Assembly (NCBI GenBank): GCA_951406725.2
Contig: OX597823.1
Location: forward strand, 50,654,001 to 50,718,000
Length of the DNA stretch: 64,000 nucleotides
Source of the DNA: Octopus vulgaris
Lineage: Eukaryota
Direction of reading: 5' to 3'
Positions 14,811-59,143 of the stretch are shown piece by piece. The translations under genes and the position numbers were made by a program. Under the pieces are notes generated by a model. It did no database searches and was not told the DNA's origin. It was given only the letters and a program-made list of their open reading frames with translations. Within the stretch, counting starts at the first letter, position 1, and every line of letters starts with the position of its first letter.

Positions 14811-14940
14811 GAAGGCGCATGACTCAGTGGTTAGAGCATCGAGCTTACGATCGTGATGATGAGAGTTCGAATCCCGGACCGGGCTGAGTATTGTGTTCTT
14901 GAGCAAGATACTTTATTTCACGTTGGTCCAGTTCAGCTGT
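14811..14940 (+). mobile_element. SINE family C, 5' part
   Basis: GGCGCATGACTCAGTGGTTAGAGC (A box) ... GAGTTCGAATCCC (B box). Confidence 0.8.
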
Positions 14941-15300
14941 CGTCAGCTGGCTTATTTGAACCAAAAAATCGAAGAATTGAGGCCGGAGATTGCTAACGGA
15001 GATTGGTTGGAATCTCTTAACCATCTACCATATTCTCCTGATATTGTGGCATCCAACTACCACCTGTTTTTGTCTCTAAAGAACTCATTGAAAGGAAAAA
15101 CATTTAACGATTTAACATTTAACGATGGAGTCAAAACGTATCTAAACTATTTTTCTTCAAAACCAGTCAAATTTTACGTTGATGGAATATTTAAACCACC
15201 TGATAGATGGGCAAAGGTCATTAATAATAATGTAAAATATTTCATTGAATAAAATTTATTGAAAGGTCAATTATTTACATCTTTTTGTATATTAAAAACT
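14941..15300 (+). pseudogene. Mariner transposase C-terminal fragment
   Basis: HLPYSPDIVASNYHLF...FYVDGIFKPPDRWAKVINNNVKYF (YSPDLAP-D motif variant). Confidence 0.9.
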
Positions 15301-29908: not shown

Positions 29909-29978
<70 letters not shown>

Positions 29979-30050
29979 GGTATGTAGAAAAATACAACAT
30001 GGACAAGAACGTATAACTCTTAGAAGACGACACAATAAACACGGACAGGA

Positions 30051-30215
30051 CATTCGAAACCCTCAGTCTTCAGTCAAGAACCGGATCATCGTAGTAATTT
30101 CGGCTGATTAATCTTGAGATTACTAGATCACGGCCAGCCCTCCAAGAAAAACCAAGCAACAAGCATTAGAAAAACTAAGCTGGAAGCGTAGATTTCCTGG
30201 AAGAAGGATCGAATG
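30051..30215 (-). ncRNA. Permuted hammerhead-like motif, copy 1 (core 30067-30139; predicted cut 30118/30117)
   Basis: Minus: GGCTGG CCGTGATC TAGTAAT C TCAAGA TTAA TCAGCC GAA ATTACTA CGAT GATCCGG T TCTTGA CTGAAGA. Confidence 0.7.
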
Positions 30216-30909
30216 CATACGAACACCAGGACAGCAAAAGGGACAGATATAAAAAAACAAAAAACAATAATGGAATACAGAAACATGAAATACAGAAGCA
30301 TTAACGGTGAAAACAACAGTGTCTTACGACTGATAACAAGCAAACAAATTTTTTCTCTGGCGCAATGGAAAAAGCCTTTATAGTGGCGGACGAAAACAGC
30401 GATGTTAACAAGACAAGGGTCAGAAGCTGAAAGGCAGATTTCGGCCAACAGTCACGTGACAGAGAAGAGGGAAAAGAAAAGAAAGGGAAGCAAAGGAAGA
30501 GAGAGAGAGAGGAGAGAGAGAGAGGAGGGACAAACGCAACAAAGAGAGAGAAGAGAGAGAAAGAAGGAATCAGAGAGGAGAAGGGATGGGTGTCGAAGAA
30601 TGACCTGTGAGTGCAGAGCGAGACAAAGAAATAGGAGGGTAGTGGAAGACTAGACCAAAGAATCAGAGGAAAGAGAAGAGAAAAAGAGGATGAGTAGAGA
30701 GAAAAGAGAGAGAGAGGGGGACAGATCAAGTAAAAATGAGAGAGAGAGAGAGACAAACAGAGAGTCGTACCAATTATTAAGAATATGTGCTCACATAAAT
30801 GTTAAGGGGGGTACGGGGCGCCTGGAATATATGTTAAGGTATGTAGAAAAATACAACATGGACAAGAACGTATAACTCTTAGAAGACGACACAATAAACA
30901 CGGACAGGA

Positions 30910-31074
30910 CATTCGAAACCCTCAGTCTTCAGTCAAGAACCGGATCATCGTAGTAATTTCGGCTGATTAATCTTGAGATTACTAGATCACGGCCAGCCCT
31001 CCAAGAAAAACCAAGCAACAAGCATTAGAAAAACTAAGCTGGAAGCGTAGATTTCCTGGAAGAAGGATCGAATG
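30910..31074 (-). ncRNA. Permuted hammerhead-like motif, copy 2 (core 30926-30998)
   Basis: Identical to copy 1. Confidence 0.7.
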
Positions 31075-31353
31075 CATACGAACACCAGGACAGCAAAAGG
31101 GACAGATATAAAAAAACAAAAAACAATAATGGAATACAGAAACATGAAATACAGAAGCATTAACGGTGAAAACAACAGTGTCTTACGACTGATAACAAGC
31201 AAACAAATTTTTTCTCTGGCGCAATGGAAAAAGCCTTTATAGTGGCGGACGAAAACAGCGATGTTAACAAGACAAGGGTCAGAAGCTGAAAGGCAGATTT
31301 CGGCCAACAGTCACGTGACAGAGAAGAGGGAAAAGAAAAGAAAGGGAAGCAAA

Positions 31354-31387
<34 letters not shown>

Positions 31388-31768
31388 GGACAAACGCAAC
31401 AAAGAGAGAGAAGAGAGAGAAAGAAGGAATCAGAGAGGAGAAGGGATGGGTGTCGAAGAATGACCTGTGAGTGCAGAGCGAGACAAAGAAATAGGAGGGT
31501 AGTGGAAGACTAGACCAAAGAATCAGAGGAAAGAGAAGAGAAAAAGAGGATGAGTAGAGAGAAAAGAGAGAGAGGGGGGACAGATCAAGTAAAAATGAGA
31601 GAGAGAGAGAGACAAACAGAGAGTCGTACCAATTATTAAGAATATGTGCTCACATAAATGTTAAGGGGGGTACGGGGCGCCTGGAATATATGTTAAGGTA
31701 TGTAGAAAAATACAACATGGACAAGAACGTATAACTCTTAGAAGACGACACAATAAACACGGACAGGA

Positions 31769-31933
31769 CATTCGAAACCCTCAGTCTTCAGTCAAGAACC
31801 GGATCATCGTAGTAATTTCGGCTGATTAATCTTGAGATTACTAGATCACGGCCAGCCCTCCAAGAAAAACCAAGCAACAAGCATTAGAAAAACTAAGCTG
31901 GAAGCGTAGATTTCCTGGAAGAAGGATCGAATG
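31769..31933 (-). ncRNA. Permuted hammerhead-like motif, copy 3 (core 31785-31857)
   Basis: Identical to copy 1. Confidence 0.7.
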
Positions 31934-32629
31934 CATACGAACACCAGGACAGCAAAAGGGACAGATATAAAAAAACAAAAAACAATAATGGAATACAGAA
32001 ACATGAAATACAGAAGCATTAACGGTGAAAACAACAGTGTCTTACGACTGATAACAAGCAAACAAATTTTTTCTCTGGCGCAATGGAAAAAGCCTTTATA
32101 GTGGCGGACGAAAACAGCGATGTTAACAAGACAAGGGTCAGAAGCTGAAAGGCAGATTTCGGCCAACAGTCACGTGACAGAGAAGAGGGAAAAGAAAAGA
32201 AAGGGAAGCAAAGGAAGAGAGAGAGAGAGGGAGAGAGAGAGAGGAGGGACAAACGCAACAAAGAGAGAGAAGAGAGAGAAAGAAGGAATCAGAGAGGAGA
32301 AGGGATGGGTGTCGAAGAATGACCTGTGAGTGCAGAGCGAGACAAAGAAATAGGAGGGTAGTGGAAGACTAGACCAAAGAATCAGAGGAAAGAGAAGAGA
32401 AAAAGAGGATGAGTAGAGAGAAAAGAGAGAGAGAGGGGGGACAGATCAAGTAAAAATGAGAGAGAGAGAGAGACAAACAGAGAGTCGTACCAATTATTAA
32501 GAATATGTGCTCACATAAATGTTAAGGGGGGTACGGGGCGCCTGGAATATATGTTAAGGTATGTAGAAAAATACAACATGGACAAGAACGTATAACTCTT
32601 AGAAGACGACACAATAAACACGGACAGGA

Positions 32630-32794
32630 CATTCGAAACCCTCAGTCTTCAGTCAAGAACCGGATCATCGTAGTAATTTCGGCTGATTAATCTTGAGATT
32701 ACTAGATCACGGCCAGCCCTCCAAGAAAAACCAAGCAACAAGCATTAGAAAAACTAAGCTGGAAGCGTAGATTTCCTGGAAGAAGGATCGAATG
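32630..32794 (-). ncRNA. Permuted hammerhead-like motif, copy 4 (core 32646-32718)
   Basis: Identical to copy 1. Confidence 0.7.
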
Positions 32795-33640
32795 CATACG
32801 AACACCAGGACAGCAAAAGGGACAGATATAAAAAAACAAAAAACAATAATGGAATACAGAAACATGAAATACAGAAGCATTAACGGTGAAAACAACAGTG
32901 TCTTACGACTGATAACAAGCAAACAAATTTTTTCTCTGGCGCAATGGAAAAAGCCTTTATAGTGGCGGACGAAAACAGCGATGTTAACAAGACAAGGGTC
33001 AGAAGCTGAAAGGCAGATTTCGGCCAACAGTCACGTGACAGAGAAGAGGGAAAAGAAAAGAAAGAGAAGCAAAGGAAGAGAGAGAGAGAGGAGAGAGAGA
33101 GAGAGGGACAAACGCAACAAAGAGAGAGAAGAGAGAGAAAGAAGGAATCAGAGAGGAGAAGGGATGGGTGTCGAAGAATGACCTGTGAGTGCAGAGCGAG
33201 ACAAAGAAATAGGAGGGTAGTGGAAGACTAGACCAAAGAATCAGAGGAAAGAGAAGAGAAAAAGAGGATGAGTAGAGAGAAAAGAGAGAGAGAGGGGGAC
33301 AGATCAAGTAAAAATGAGAGAGAGAGAGAGACAAACAGAGAGTCGTACCAATTATTAAGAATATGTGCTCACATATATATATATATATATATGTGTGTGT
33401 GTTTGTATATTTGAGGATTTTGTGTATATACATCACATCCATCCATCCATCCATCCATCCATCCATACCATACATACATACATACATACATACATACATG
33501 CGTACATCTAAATATGAAGAGAAGTGCAATTTGCGATATTTTGAGTTTATGTACTTTCCATATATTTATACCAACGCGGATATTCAGGAAGCATTTGAGA
33601 CATTCGCACACACACATACGCATACACGCACGCACACACA

Positions 33641-43739: not shown

Positions 43740-43936
43740 ATGTATGTATGTATGTATGTACGTATGTGTGTGTGTATGTGTATATACAGATAGATAGAAA
43801 GACACAAATACTACTCGGTGAGTGCATGTGTGTGTGTGTATACATACATACATGCATACATACATACATACATACATACATACATACATACATACATACA
43901 TACATACATACATACATACATACATACATACTTACA

Positions 43937-44340
43937 TACCTCAGAGAAGACCTGGATGGAAAGCACTCAGCATGCAAAAAAAAAGAAGACTATGCCCGGA
44001 AGGTTGAAAAAGACAGTAGAATTGACACGAAGCGCAGGCCCTCTTGGACACTTTGAAGGCTATGCGTTTGCAATCCAAGAACAGGAGATTACCACAAAGT
44101 ACCTGGTGAACAAGAGAGACAGTGACGCTCTTGTAATCCGAAGGTGCAACTGCATGTGTAGGCAATGTCATGTTTCTGTAGAAGATGTAATGCATGTGAT
44201 TAGTAGCTGCCCTAAAATGTCGCCACGGTACTATCTCCCTATGCGGCACGATGTTGTCGCTAAAACAATTTACAATGCAATCCGCAAGAAAGACTGAAAT
44301 AAACTTAGAAAATCCTTCTTTAGAATCAAAATGTCTCACG
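43937..44340 (+). pseudogene. R4-clade (RLE) LINE fragment, CCHC finger region
   Basis: FAIQEQEITTKYL...CRQCHVSVEDVMHVISSCPKMSPRYYLPMRHDVVAKTIY; paralogous to 46540-46920. Confidence 0.85.
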
Positions 44341-45679: not shown

Positions 45680-47440
45680 TTGACAAAGGTATGTGCTACT
45701 TTAGTTTGCTGTCATTGAGAAGCTCACAAATACCTTGCCAACACTTCTCACACTTACAACTGGGAGCTGAAAGATCATTTCCAACATTATAAATATTTCA
45801 ATGGTAATATTCAAAGGAGATAGACTTCCTGTAATTCTGTTCACTTTGGCATTAGATCCATTACTATTCCTGCTGCAAAAATCAAGTGGCTACATGCTAG
45901 GGTCTGCAACGGCTAGAGACATTAATGTAACCCATAATTTCTTTGTGGATGATCTGATGATTATGCTAAAAATGTTAATAATCTCCCCCACCAAAAAAGA
46001 AAAAAAAAGCTGAAGATATTTAGTTGTTGGACGCGGAAAATCACCCCGCTACCCAAAATCTGTGCATCAATGGTCACCCTATATCTCCTGTTCCACATAA
46101 AGAACCTTACAATCATATAGGCATTAGTGAAAACATACGAAGATAGAGTGACCCGAAAATATTATGCCAGAATAAGAAAAGTATGGCAGTCGAAATCTCC
46201 TGTTGTAACTAAACAATATCCCACAATGCAGTTGTAGCACCAGTGCTGATTCCGTGCCTTGGGATACTTGATTGGTCTATAAAGGAAACTGTGATGTCGA
46301 CAGTAGCTACGTAAGAAGGATCAAAAGAGGTAGAGGTATGAGATCAGTGTAGACAGCTATCGAATGTCGGATAGTCCCTCTTAAAGAACACCTGTTAAAC
46401 AACCGCAAAAAAATAAATACGCAAACATAGGGCAGGAAAGCTAAGAGAAATAACATCCGACGAGTTGGCAGTGAATCACACAAGACGTACTCTCTTCCTG
46501 ATTATCTTACATGCAACCTCTAAAACAGCCGAACTAACGTACCTCAGAGAAGACGTGGATGTGAAATGTTCAGCAAACAAAACTTTTTTTTTTTAAATGG
46601 CTATTCATGGATATATTTACCGAAGACTCGAAGTCAATAACATCGACATGAAGTGCAACCTCACTTGGACTCGTGATTGCTACATCACATCACAATTCAA
46701 GAACAGGGGATTGCTACGAAATACCTGATAAGCTAAAGATTCAGTGAAGGGCTTGGAACACCAAGATGCAACCGAAAATACAGATTATATCATATTTCTG
46801 CGGAAGCCATCTTACATGATTAGCAGCTGCGCAAAAATGTCATCAAGGTATTACCTCCCTATGCGACGACTCGACGCTTTCGCAAAAACGATATATAATC
46901 CCATCCGGAAAGAAGAGTGTTCTGGAATAAATATACAGAAACCCCTTGCTATTGAATATGTACACAAACAACAACAACACATAGAATATTGGTCGAACAT
47001 TCCTATCAAAACATCTATCAAGTGTAAGCATAATAGGCCGGATAATGTTTGGGACTGATTAGAAGAAGTAGAGGTCAGCTGCCTTACTAATGCGGACATC
47101 TCATCGAAAATCAAAGAAAGTGGATAACCAAAGACATCTGCTTCGAAACAACCAGTTCGTATTTCCAGATTATAAATTGACATTTACACTTATAAAAATT
47201 GGTGTAATAGGTTTTCTGAGTAAATGCTTAAGTGACAATCTGGATAAGCCAAGATTTCCAGAAGACAATAACCAGCTAATTCGCATATTGCATACAAAAT
47301 CTGTAAGTGGAAAAGTAAGACTATGCAAGACTTTTAAGTGTAAAACGTGAATTTGTTTTTTGTTATTTACATTACAGCGACGGAGCTTTGTAGCTTTGTT
47401 AGAAACTAGCTCATTCTTTAGAGGAAGGTATGAATTAATT
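45680..47440 (+). pseudogene. Decayed R4-clade LINE (RT plus RLE)
   Basis: IFKGDRLPVILFTLALDPL...VTHNFFVDDL (RT core), then ISSCAKMSSRYYLPMR, CKHNRPD, EVSC, IKIGVIG. Confidence 0.85.
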
Positions 47441-47758: not shown

Positions 47759-48445
47759 ACCAGGTTCTCGCTGCCAAGTCAGTGAAATATAACATATATA
47801 AAACTTCTGACACCCAGAAATGCAGACTCTGGAAAGAGTGTGAAAAGTGTGACCCACTTGGTAAGTAGATGTGAGAGCCTTGCACAAAAAGAATACAAGC
47901 GCCACCACGATAAAGTGTGTGTGTATCTTCATTGGCTCTTATGCCGTAAATACCAACATGAAATAACAGAGAACTGGTATGAGCATGTACCAAGCAAAGT
48001 TATGGAGGAGGATGGAAAAGTAACGATACTCTGGGACAATGATTTTCGAAGTAATCGAAGAACATCGGCCGGATATTGTCATATTGAATAAGAGAGACAA
48101 ATACTGTCAGATCATTGATATAGCCATACCAAATGACATGAATGTTGTGAGTAAAGAGGTTTAAAGAATCATCAAGCACTCCGAATTGAGAGTGGAAATG
48201 GCAAGACTGTATGGAATGCGAGAGGGAAATGTAAAAGTGATGCCAATAGCGATCGGAGCATTGGGTTTAACCGCATTGAAACTTCAAAGCTTCTTAAGGA
48301 ATCTGGAAATCCCATGCAAGATTGAAGTCTTGCTAAAAGCAGCCTTACAGAGCACAGCGCATATCTTAAGGAAAGTATTATCTGTCTGAGGTCCTTGTTG
48401 TGACTTGACATATGATTAAAGACTCTGGTGCATTTTTACGAAGGA
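47759..48445 (+). mobile_element. 5'-truncated Dong/R4 retrotransposon in a TAA-rich tract
   Basis: DQVL..KCRL..SVTHLVSRCESLAQKEYKRHHDKV..WYEHVP..ILWD..RPDIV..IIDIAIP..PIAIGALG..STAHILRKVL*, followed by (TAA)n at 48446-48547. Confidence 0.9.
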
Positions 48446-53222: not shown

Positions 53223-54130
53223 CTAGCAGTATCGCCCGGTGTTGCTCGGGTTTGTAAGGGAAATAACTATATAAGCATTTTTAGTGAGTTATAGCAAAAA
53301 AATAGCAAAAAAATGCATTAAAAATGGAATAAAAAATGATGGTAAATTTTTTTTTTAAATCGTTAACTCATCGTAGACATTTTTAGAGAGTTACTTCCCT
53401 TATATAATAGCGAAAAAATGCATTAAAATGGAAAAAATGATGGTAATTTTTTTTTAAATCGTAGACTCATCGTAGACGCGCGCTAATACCCAGAAGGGCT
53501 CGATATGAATCGCGACTATAAGATACCCGGTTTTGGTTAAACTGCACCGCAAAATGTGGGAGTAGTTAGGAATCTAAATCGTAGGAGACAGACACACAAC
53601 TTCACTTTTATATATAAAGATTTGTGTAACAACGAAAACATTCGGTAGTGCAAATTGTTTGCACAGGAAACCTGCCCTGTGTGGCGGTTTTTGCCGTTTT
53701 TGTGGATATGTTTCAGCATTTTTAGCGATTTCTGTTTTGGCGACTTCAAGCCATGAAGTCGTTGTTCTAAAGGAACGCTGGTCTCCTTGACAACGCTTTA
53801 CGACGTTGATTTCCTTACACTCCCTTCCCCACAGCTTCACGAGGGAGGGAAGAAGGGGGAGAAGCAAAACAGGTGCAGGTGTGAGCATGGACGCCAACTC
53901 CGCCGCCAATTAAAAAAAAATATGCGTTAAAATGGAAAAAAATGATGTTAAATTATTTTTAAAATCGTAGACTCATCGTAGACGCGCGCTAATACCCAGA
54001 TGGGCTCGATATGAATCACGACTATAAGATACCCGAATTTGGTTAAACTGCACCGCAAAATGTGGGAGTAGTTAGGAATCTAAATCGAAGAGGACAGACA
54101 CTCACACAACTACAGTTTTATATATATAGA
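53223..54130 (-). mobile_element. Non-autonomous Helitron with internal duplications
   Basis: Minus A|TCTATATATATAAAA ... CCCGAGCAACACCGGG hairpin, CTAG|T; ~200-bp block repeated at ~53415-53620 and ~53920-54130. Confidence 0.8.
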
Positions 54131-54221
54131 TATGTATATATATCTATATACCGGAGTAAACACATAAATGTGAAACAAGGTGGAAAAAAGAGTACTCAAA
54201 TACCAGTGGTAGAGTAATATG

Positions 54222-54379
54222 CTTTATTTTAAGCAGCAGAAAATTCAACAAAATCTGTTACTCTGAGTTTCTCGTTGCCGTTCATCAGACACTTTTTGCT
54301 TGCAAAAACTGTCTGATGAACGGCAACGAGAAACTCAGAGTAACAGATTTTGTTGAATTTTCTGCTGCTTAAAATAAAG
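54222..54379. repeat. Near-perfect 158-bp palindrome
   Basis: Arms CTTTATTTTAAGCAGCAG...CATCAGACAC and reverse complement; 1 mismatch near the centre. Confidence 0.95.
54305..54351 (+). ncRNA. Type I minimal hammerhead ribozyme (mirror copy on minus strand at ~54250-54296)
   Basis: CTGT CTGATGA a-CG-GCAA-CG-a GAA ACTC a GAGT A^ACAG: stem I CTGT/ACAG, GNRA-capped stem II, stem III ACTC/GAGT, GUA triplet. Confidence 0.8.
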
Positions 54380-54433
54380 TATATATCTATATATATATGT
54401 ATAAGTATGTATGGATATGTATATATGTAAATA

Positions 54434-54491
<58 letters not shown>

Positions 54492-54635
54492 TGCATATAT
54501 ATGTATATATGTATATATATGCTTGTATATATATATGTATATGTATATGTATGTGTATGTGTATGTATATATATATATATGTATATATGTAAATATATAT
54601 GTATATATATATATATGTATATGTATGTGTATGTG

Positions 54636-54671
<36 letters not shown>

Positions 54672-54679
54672 TATATAAA

Positions 54680-54833
54680 GATAAGAGAAGAAATGGAGCA
54701 ACAGTTAACAATTAGAAGTTGATCATTGGTATTAAAAGGTCATAGTTTAATTGTAGTTCAATTGAACTATGATCTTTCAAAATTCAATGATCAATTTCTA
54801 ATTGTTAATTGTTGCTACATTTCTTTTCTTATC
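54680..54833. repeat. Imperfect ~150-bp palindrome
   Basis: GATAAGAGAAGAAATGGAGCAACAGTTAACAATTAGAAGTTGATCATTG / CAATGATCAATTTCTAATTGTTAATTGTTGCTACATTTCTTTTCTTATC. Confidence 0.85.
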
Positions 54834-54992
54834 CGAATATATTAAACCGCGGTTTTACCATTTAAATTACAAACTACTGTTAACCTTATAGCAAGGCCTA
54901 CCCACAGCGAGGTAATACAACAGTGCTGCCTACGGCTAGATTTAGCACTTAGACGGTTACATAACCTCTAACTCATAATTTATACATACATA

Positions 54993-55445
54993 CGGAATAT
55001 AGATGTTGGTTTGACCGCCGTCCGTGCAACATCTATATTCCTCCCTGTGCCTGTCAAACCTTGTATCCCTGCCGTAAGGCCTTATTTCCATGCACACCAG
55101 CTTAATTTAATTCGTCCTTAGTCGAAAGACACCTGTTTTTATGTCCTGTTATTTGTATTTGTGAAACATACTCCGTTATTTTTCAGTCCTTGTTTTCGTA
55201 TACATTCGCTGCTTTCTTCCAAGGAATCTAATGCTCTTAGATTAGTTTTTCATTGGGGCTGGCCAGATTGGAGCAATCTCGAGTATAACCAGCCGAAGTT
55301 GCAAAGATAATCTGGAACTCGACTGAAGAAAGAAAACTCCGAATGACCCGTCCTTGTTTTCTTTGTATCGTCTATCTGGATTTTTTGCTGTCCCTTTTTT
55401 GTTTCACCTAACTCTCTGGATGTTTTACGTTCTTGTCCCATTTTG
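54993..55445 (+). mobile_element. Retrozyme-like element (subfamily 1-related), single diverged copy
   Basis: Homologous to the array unit: GTCGAAAGACAC, CATTCG, motif core, CGAATG, ACGTTCTTGTCC; ends in (TA)/(TG)n. Confidence 0.75.
55203..55345 (+). ncRNA. Permuted hammerhead-like motif (core 55257-55329; predicted cut after 55278)
   Basis: GGCTGG CCAGATTG GAGCAAT C TCGAGT ATAA CCAGCC GAA GTTGCAA AGAT AATCTGG A ACTCGA CTGAAGA; 73 nt, collinear with the array motif. Confidence 0.7.
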
Positions 55446-55637
55446 TATAATATATATGTGTGGGTGTGTGTGTACGCGTGTGTGTATATATACAGGTATA
55501 TACATACTTGTATATATATACATATGTATATATATATATATATGTATATACATATATTTATATGTATATATATATACATATATACATGTATGTATGTATA
55601 TGCACACACACACGCACGAACATACATTTATATATAT

Positions 55638-55683
<46 letters not shown>

Positions 55684-55822
55684 GTACATATATATATATA
55701 TGTGTATCTACATATATATATATGTATATATATATGAATATATATATGTATGTGTGTCTATCTATCTATATATGTATATTTATATATCTACACAGATATA
55801 TATACATATGTATATTTATTTG

Positions 55823-55857
<35 letters not shown>

Positions 55858-57978: not shown

Positions 57979-59143
57979 TAGGTCTGATCAATAAGCAATC
58001 GGACTGGTGCTATAAAAGCAATACTACAACACGTACCAATTCGGCATTTAATCTCCTACAAAGTAGCCCCCCTCAGAAGCCACACACTTAATCCAGTGCT
58101 GTTTCCATTGATGGAAGAATTCCTGGAACTCGCTTTCTGGGATACTCAGCAGCTATTTCGTCGCATTCGCATTCATTTCCTTGTCGTCCTGAAATCTTCT
58201 TCCTTTCAAGCGGGATTTTGGTTTTTGGAAAGAGGAAAAAGTCGCAAGGGACGAGATCTGGGGAATGCGGTGGCTGTCAGACCTGGGTTATGCCGTGCCT
58301 AACCAAAAACTGCTGCACAAGCTGCACTGAATGGGCAGGTGCTTTGTCAGCTGAAAGTAGTTTTGGCACAAACTTGGCAGACACACGTATCATACTCAAA
58401 TCTTCGGTGATAATGGACTGAACTGAACCGTATCTAATCTGCACATCTTCTGATAGCTCCTGGATGGTGATTCGACGATTTCCCCTCACAGCTGCACGCA
58501 CATGTGCGATGTTTTTCTCAGTTCTGCTGGATGCAATTCTCGTAGAACGCTCGTCACTGTCGACAATTTCCCGGCTCGTACACACCTCTCCATACACTTC
58601 CATATTTCTTTATTGCCCCCCAAGGGGCTAAACATAGAGGGGACAAACAAGGACAGACAAAGGGATTAAGTCGATTACATCGACCCCAGTGCGTAACTGG
58701 TATTAATTTATCTATACCGAGAGGATGAAAGGCAAAGTCGACCTCGGCGGAATTTGAACTCAGAACGTAGCGGCAGACGAAATACCACTAAGCATTTCAC
58801 CCGGCGTGCTAACGTTTCTGCCAGCTCTCTGCCTTATACTTACACTTACTCTCTTTACATTTTCTGCAACTTTGCACAGGCCTCTGAACAGGTATCGCCA
58901 AGCTTTTGGTAAAATTTGATGCAGATTCCCTGCACAACTTCTCTGCCATGGTCAATGTGAAGATCACATGTTACACACGTTCTATCCAAGCAGCGCTGTA
59001 AACAACGGAAGTGAGCTAGAACGTTAAAACTTAATGCGCGTGCACAGCAGAGTTCAAGGTCAATTTGTGCCAAGCAGCTTCACTCTGCGTGCTTTAGCTT
59101 CGTTACTATAGCAACAGTCCTGATACTTATTGATCAGACCACT
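57978..59143 (-). mobile_element. Defective mariner element with both TIRs, interrupted by a SINE
   Basis: TIRs GGTCTGATCAATAAG / CTTATTGATCAGACC; minus ORFs CIKFYQKLGDTCSEA, RRITIQELSE..GSVQSIITEDLSMIRVSAKFVPKLLS, PHSPDLVPCD. Confidence 0.9.
58603..58834 (-). mobile_element. SINE family A nested in mariner
   Basis: Near-consensus copy. Confidence 0.92.

Follow-up and report, generated by a model that had tools for sequence, protein, structure and literature searches.

Hammerhead ribozymes have been divided into three blocks of sequence, named C, G and S, and six topologies of these blocks were counted as possible (Eckert 2023, PMC10085705). In that scheme, block C is treated as uninterruptible beyond 1-2 nt, and the link between A9 and G10.1 is assumed never to be broken. 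Ribozymes of types SGC (HRIMA-1) and CSG, which carry a helix at the position that we call helix b, cleave at the predicted site, with rates of 0.004 per min for CSG-1 and 0.026 per min for CSG-2 within a CSG/SGC range of 0.004-0.2 per min. Type CSG comprises 2 unique sequences from soil, and we found it described in Eckert 2023 only.

Minimal type I hammerheads, by comparison, occur in the pseudo-LTRs of Penelope-like elements (PLEs) and in animal non-LTR retrozymes, within noncoding tandem units of less than 1 kb (PMC6765202; bioRxiv 10.64898/2026.07.22.740005). These hammerheads are canonical, have a palindromic mini stem III and cleave as dimers. In the Clec2 discontinuous hammerhead (PMC6765202), several hundred inserted nucleotides separate the parts. 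One PLE hammerhead, that of PAc, required protein in order to cleave, and insertion in vitro did not depend on its cleavage (Frangieh 2024, PMC11167929).

The Naiads are a clade of PLEs that lack canonical hammerheads according to Craig 2021 (PMC8557442). Some Naiad consensi were flagged there as 'HHR_core' or 'HHR_half_core'; the flagged strings did not fit the authors' descriptors, and the relevant passages propose no fold. The same study describes (TA)n insertion, tandem units, a 30-40 bp tail and 5' inversion for PLEs/Naiads. Our literature search, which covered few subscription papers and screened most listings by title and the opening of the abstract, turned up no paper that describes a hammerhead with a split core or assigns permuted hammerheads to Naiads, and in the portion available to us of the 2026 retrozyme/PLE preprint (bioRxiv 10.64898/2026.07.22.740005), the string 'permut' occurs just in one reference title.

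We analyzed a 64,000-nt stretch of the Octopus vulgaris genome, hereafter the window, that carries two related subfamilies of a noncoding repeat, one present as a solo copy (the sister copy) and the other as a tandem array. In both, the strand order is stem II 5' strand, block S, block G, and stem I 3' strand with CUGANGA. Four helices are paired, and the full core is present in the sister copy's family and in the array. This is a real, covarying hammerhead-type structure with a topology outside the six known, and it is apparently common to Naiads of several phyla. We consider it likely that the repeat family specifies a cis-acting self-cleaving hammerhead, whose three blocks stand in a pseudoknotted, non-circular order and whose catalytic strand, split between A9 and G10.1, would probably be rejoined by a four-way junction.

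Strand order of the octopus motif

Read 5' to 3', the sister copy presents the distal clamp, the proximal closing helix P0, hairpin H, the stem II 5' strand, helix b, block S, a linker, block G, the second strand of helix b (helix b'), the stem I 3' strand with CUGANGA, and the clamp partners. Features are as follows, in window coordinates.

54994..55008, minus strand: 15-nt exact inverted copy of 55027-55041, at the 5' end of the element
55008..55449, plus strand: solo 5'-truncated copy of a high-copy noncoding repeat, followed by (TG/TA)n; placed by read depth and by homology to the array unit, which reaches 55449; ends approximate
55203..55208, plus strand: distal clamp, 5' strand, partner 55340-55345; p 0.97-0.99 with the core held open; same helix in the array
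55213..55218, plus strand: P0, 5' strand, partner 55330-55335; weak, with five A-U pairs and one C-G pair
55219..55256, plus strand: hairpin H, flush with P0 and stem II; private mismatch at 55252
55257..55262, plus strand: stem II, 5' strand, upstream of the predicted cut site, partner 55289-55294; G10.1 is 55257
55263..55269, plus strand: helix b, 5' strand, partner 55309-55315, in the place of the stem I-II interaction helix of CSG/SGC
55273..55284, plus strand: block S, with stem III 5' strand, U16.1 (55277) and C17 (55278)
55279-55284, plus strand: stem I, 5' strand, within block S
3' of 55278, plus strand: predicted cut, placed by analogy only
Between 55284 and 55289, plus strand: 4-nt linker separating the end of block S from the start of block G
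55289..55302, plus strand: block G, with stem II 3' strand, G12-A14 (55295-55297), position 15.1 (55298) and stem III 3' strand
55309..55315, plus strand: helix b, 3' strand
55317..55329, plus strand: half of block C, with stem I 3' strand and CUGANGA (55323-55329); N7 is 55327
55330..55345, plus strand: clamp 3' strands, P0 (55330-55335) and distal (55340-55345)
55485-55855: (TA)n
29972..33378, minus strand: head-to-tail array of the related subfamily, units of 859, 859, 861 and 828 nt
30067..30139, minus strand: array core with full consensus; predicted cut after 30118
30926-30998, 31785-31857 and 32646-32718, minus strand: further array cores

An earlier note on this DNA had proposed a permuted hammerhead between 55203 and 55345, and every element that it named is present there. 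CUGANGA (C3-A9) lies directly 3' of stem I, and N7 is its sole position listed as varying among the best-supported 40 of 262 rows of differences between the sister copy and its family. N7 is the one free position of this core. U16.1 and H17, at 55277-55278, separate stem III from stem I. Between stems II and III, G12, A13, A14 and A15.1 are found in the array and in the family majority, and the sister copy has a private G at 15.1. Stems I, II and III each pair, with covariation. What departs from a hammerhead of standard order is the continuation of A9, which is not followed covalently (within 0-2 nt) by the stem II 5' strand; that strand is instead upstream, at 55257-55262. A canonical stem II after CUGANGA, whether in cis or in trans, was rejected on finding 0-1 consecutive pairs with 0-3 inserted nucleotides.

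The motif shares with types SGC and CSG (PMC10085705) a full core in the same cyclic, non-circular order S, G, C, a short linker from the stem I 5' strand to the stem II 3' strand, and a helix that joins the far ends of stems I and II at the position of helix b. In contrast to those types, in which the three blocks are uninterrupted, the octopus motif opens the cycle inside block C, with the stem II 5' strand upstream of the predicted cut and A9 entering the closing helix. The known SGC and CSG ribozymes also differ in origin, having come from metatranscriptomes and soil metagenomes, and none that is reported in the sections available to us is from an animal genome or retrotransposon. The octopus motif would work like the SGC and CSG types and is a member of neither.

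The type I hammerheads of PLEs and retrozymes are a more distant comparison: the octopus motif combines a pseudoknot and a stem I-II helix with a split core, and does not show the type I order with a short palindromic stem III loop. With the Clec2 hammerhead, it shares parts that are non-contiguous in sequence. In Clec2, the order of blocks is canonical and the gap falls within a stem loop rather than in the core.

The block order of the octopus motif is that of the pseudoknotted SGC/CSG cycle, but opened between A9 and G10.1. The P0 5' strand runs into H and then into G10.1 without a gap, and A9 leads into the P0 3' strand. We propose that H stacks on P0 to form a nicked helix, whose nick would put G10.1 (55257) beside A9 (55329). 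Stem II would then be stacked against the A9-G12 segment of the core, an arrangement like that of a stacked four-helix junction in which two strands cross; helix b would take the role of the stem I-II contact, and the RNA would be cut 3' of C55278. In a viroid hammerhead, an extra base at 9/10.1 is tolerated.

Covariation and family reads

The 73-nt sister core (55257-55329) aligns without gaps over 73 columns with the four array cores, which are mutually identical, so that the common 73-nt spacing claimed in the earlier note holds. In blastn comparisons, the sister copy matches 4 of 4 array units with 71.6% identity over 134-148 nt. The note's further claim of covarying stems withstood pairwise structural comparison. 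When one gap is placed in helix b to accommodate a bulged base, 24 of 24 pairs in stems I to III and helix b are standard in both the sister and array versions: 17 are unchanged, 5 have two-sided changes, 2 have one-sided changes and none is broken. Stem II retains 6 of 6 pairs in both versions (p 0.74-0.78), and helix b retains 7 of 7, with 2 of them changed on both sides. Random placement of the same 12 substitutions (10 of them transitions) on the 48 paired positions left all 24 pairs intact in 295 of 2,000,000 trials.

The window holds only 2 distinct versions of the motif, the four copies in the array not being independent. In an ungapped alignment, which accommodates 20 of the 24 pairs, 100% of cells pair, and sliding of the partner strand lowers this to 7.5-45%. 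A shuffle control of pairing on this alignment gave 48/500, and is weak because there are just 2 distinct rows. A descriptor composed after the motif had been seen matches the window exactly 5 times, at the sister copy and the four array cores, and has 0 matches in 300 dinucleotide shuffles. Likewise, a profile built from the sister copy and one array unit recovers just these 5 known copies in a search of the window.

Searches with existing models gave no ribozyme. Rfam has 0 matches in the window at gathering threshold, and none of the 57 matches by E-value in 54000-55500 is to a ribozyme family. Pattern scans for the window family found 0 loci in viral contigs and 0 in prokaryote genome contigs. 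Six loci were found in metagenome contigs, and were rejected as chance matches because stems I and III are both paired in 0 of 6. Nested folding, which is unable to represent the pseudoknotted fold, gives stem I a p of 0.0 and helix b one of 0.12-0.22, and under it the sister sequence folds no better than shuffles (z -0.97).

To view the sister copy within its family, we used one raw RNA run and three contig sets over 54840-55440. At position 55298, 413 of 423 RNA reads have A, as does at least 99.7% of contig depth in each of the three contig runs, and the G at 15.1 is therefore private to the sister copy, in agreement with the earlier reading of it as decay. N7 (55327) is G in 201 of 443 RNA reads and in 79-86% of contig depth. 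Restoration of A15.1 and variation at N7 are the only core differences among the best-supported 40 of the 262 rows. The expectation that compensations recur in subfamily consensus sequences was borne out in part, for the sister family only, in which no compensating position is among the best-supported 40 of 262 difference rows.

The multiway junction at 9/10.1 proposed in the earlier note is supported as a feature of the design; in the sister copy itself the hairpin has deteriorated. Positions 55241 and 55252 of this copy differ from the family majority, and they leave hairpin H with a competing register (from 55241) in addition to its private mismatch. In a nested model, the p of H is 0.0-0.29 in the sister copy and 0.84-1.0 with majority letters. 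P0 has a p of 0.4-0.7 in the sister copy and 0.0 with family-majority letters in this model, which has no coaxial stacking; the distal clamp remains at about 0.98 even with majority letters, and in the array a 5-bp equivalent of P0 forms. G at 15.1 impairs hammerhead cleavage. Because of this G and the damaged hairpin, the solo sister copy is likely inactive.

In 4 of 4 runs, read depth increases at 55008 and once more near 55092, and it declines past about 55400. By depth, which is not the same as copy number, the sequence from about 55008 to about 55400 is a very abundant repeat. Both mate directions are equal in the single RNA run (1144 reads, from about 6% of its data), and no place was found there at which many RNA molecules start or end. 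A validated PLE hammerhead likewise left no ends in RNA-seq (Frangieh 2024, PMC11167929).

Host elements and Naiad 3' ends

Both subfamilies end in (TA)n or (TG/TA)n. The array units are 99.4-99.7% identical, (TA)n is found at both ends of the array, and a 38-nt junction piece within the array is missing from both of its ends. The window thus shows (TA)n flanks, head-to-tail units, the 38-nt junction piece and 5' inversion, all PLE hallmarks, and these correspond to the (TA)n insertion, tandem units, 30-40 bp tail and 5' inversion of Naiads (PMC8557442), with which the window copies also share the lack of a canonical hammerhead. Of the traits of non-LTR retrozymes, tandem arrangement and lack of coding sequence are found, and a type I hammerhead in each unit is not. 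We infer that the window copies are pseudo-LTRs or non-autonomous derivatives of Naiad-type PLEs, the repeat at 55008..55449 presumably being such a pseudo-LTR. Neither this element family nor the kinship with types CSG and SGC is identified in the earlier note. Within the window, Pfam gave 0 matches for 90 selected ORFs, and no Naiad ORF (GIY-YIG at the N terminus, reverse transcriptase at the C terminus) was found linked to the copies.

Of the 54 published Naiad consensi (PMC8557442 supplement), we read the 3' ends of 32 by eye, mostly over the last ~600 nt. Record names are taken from the order of the metadata sheet, except for Ovul and Omin, which are named in headers. In 7 of the 32 we recognize the split design, in which a closing helix and a hairpin immediately precede the stem II 5' strand, formed by different letters: Bfor (ctenophore), 3_Chem (hydrozoan), Amil (coral), 2_Movir (box jelly), Plae (acanthocephalan), and Ovul and Obim (octopus). 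P0 has 5-10 bp in the five non-octopus examples. Ovul and Obim are near-identical to one another and have a weak P0, and stem I of Bfor is just 2 bp.

The unsplit type CSG, fully paired, is seen in 6 of the 32: Parc, 2_Nbra, 3_Nbra, Hcon and Hpol (nematodes) and Smim (spider), of which Smim has one extra base at 9/10.1. One of the 32, Esco, shows part of the motif. For the other 18, no motif could be parsed by eye in the stretch displayed: Omin, 3_Dst, CGi, Mgal, Adux, Tama, 1_Chem, 4_Chem, 1_Movir, Sdum, 2_Dst, 1_Skow, 1_Pfla, 2_Pfla, Ppac, 2_Chem, Ppla and Scon. Four of these (Naiad_CGi, 1_Skow, 1_Pfla and 2_Pfla; oyster, hemichordate) have in common a different, conserved 3' motif that is not a hammerhead and might be a structured RNA or ribozyme. 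In the crustacean Naiad-2_Dst, 3_Dst and Ppla, CUGANGA is flanked on either side by a strand of a helix-b-like stem, and the order may be a true SGC. Separately, identity of Eckert's CSG-1 with the Pristionchus Naiad motif was rejected, as an alignment shows the same architecture in different letters.

The occurrence of the same architecture in these consensi supports, at the level of sequence and for the 3' ends displayed, the permuted hammerhead claimed in the earlier note, and it does so independently of the window. By eye, the letters of the window are closest to Naiad-2_Movir and unlike the 3' end of Naiad_Ovul, which was rejected as direct parent for this reason; the parent element is therefore probably another Naiad lineage, to which the window copies would be linked by architecture, with no ORF link in the window. 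The 99.4-99.7% identity among array units suggests a recent insertion, which contrasts with the description of cephalopod Naiads as long inactivated (Craig 2021, PMC8557442).

It is fairly probable that Naiads carry an unrecognized, active, non-circularly permuted hammerhead, as type CSG in nematodes and spiders and, in ctenophores, cnidarians and spiralians, as a second form that is split at 9/10.1 and has a four-way junction. If true, this would be the first natural hammerhead whose core strand is discontinuous, and non-circular permutations would have their first home in a genome; duplicating the pseudo-LTR in tandem would turn one form into the other. It would break the working rule that the CUGANGA block is uninterruptible and add a topology beyond the six of Eckert 2023. 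Moreover, it would answer the puzzle of the Naiads as a PLE clade without canonical hammerheads and with unexplained half-core strings, and would give the rare type CSG a likely biologic home in high-copy repeats that are missed by standard descriptors. The 9/10.1 junction would also offer a new attachment site for hammerhead switches.

Cleavage of tandem transcripts by such a ribozyme would yield units of about 860 nt, whose ends could rebuild the ribozyme and be ligated into circles. Copying of the circles by a Naiad reverse transcriptase might then produce arrays such as that at 29972-33378. Neither end of the array falls at the predicted cut, which is 146 nt from the array 3' end. This fits copying, with internal initiation, of a circle or of an uncut multimer rather than of a linear cut monomer. 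Internal initiation has been tied to the PLE tail (Frangieh 2024, PMC11167929).

Alternative readings and neighboring sequences

The fold could be real and yet be a hammerhead-shaped binding site for reverse transcriptase, which cuts only when folded by protein or never. The behavior of PAc, which does not cleave without protein and whose hammerhead is unneeded for insertion in vitro (PMC11167929), makes this conceivable, as do the lack of an RNA end pile-up in the one RNA run (1144 reads, about 6% of it), the weak P0, and an array that neither starts nor ends at the predicted cut site. We nevertheless regard it as unlikely, because both subfamilies, and 13 of 32 Naiad 3' ends from several phyla, retain every catalytic position, while N7 and H17 vary, and because unsplit relatives cleave free of protein (PMC10085705). 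We consider it very unlikely that the ribozyme is a dimer between neighboring units in which subfamily-specific stems limit pairing to like partners, the restriction suggested in the earlier note. Dimeric cleavage in tandem layouts has been reported for minimal PLE hammerheads (PMC6765202), one subfamily is present as a tandem array, and the stems do differ between subfamilies. However, a span of about 145 nt supplies all strands in cis, and the sister stands alone rather than in tandem. Nor does any canonical stem II form in trans, and the motif lacks the palindromic mini stem III by which PLE dimers are driven (PMC6765202). Differences between stems are in any case expected from covariation.

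Pairings that arose by chance in an ordinary repeat, of which two copies have diverged, would agree with the presence of only 2 distinct sequences in the window and the shuffle result of 48/500, with the absence of Rfam matches at gathering threshold and of any ribozyme among the 57 E-value matches in 54000-55500, and with the sister fold's z of -0.97. Such a reading is largely refuted, and we would now be greatly surprised by it: it is opposed by the family reads, by the retention of 24 of 24 pairs with the 295/2,000,000 randomization result, and by 7 Naiad consensi in which, as read by eye, other letters form the same architecture. Rfam models, for their part, are unable to represent the strand order of the motif. 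The cis-acting, split-core hammerhead thus remains the explanation that we prefer.

Several other features of the window were observed. ORF fragments at 43794-44297, 46732-47058 and 47786-48091, which have no Pfam match, resemble the C-terminal end of a non-LTR retrotransposon, with its zinc knuckle and restriction-like endonuclease. Those at 14863-15252 and 58092-58609, also with no Pfam match, resemble decayed Tc1/mariner transposase. At 54217-54384 lies an inverted repeat with 83-nt arms that are 98% complementary, each arm with a minimal type I PLE-style hammerhead (54313-54342 on the plus strand, 54259-54288 on the minus strand). This canonical PLE remnant, which Rfam missed, is about 900 nt from the permuted motif. 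Just upstream of the sister element, 54680-54833 forms a long imperfect hairpin with 49-nt and 22-nt arms that is MITE-like. A separate repeat of lower depth, at 54840-55007, abuts the 5' end of the sister element; other copies of the element run upstream into different sequence, with loose ends at 55006-55023.
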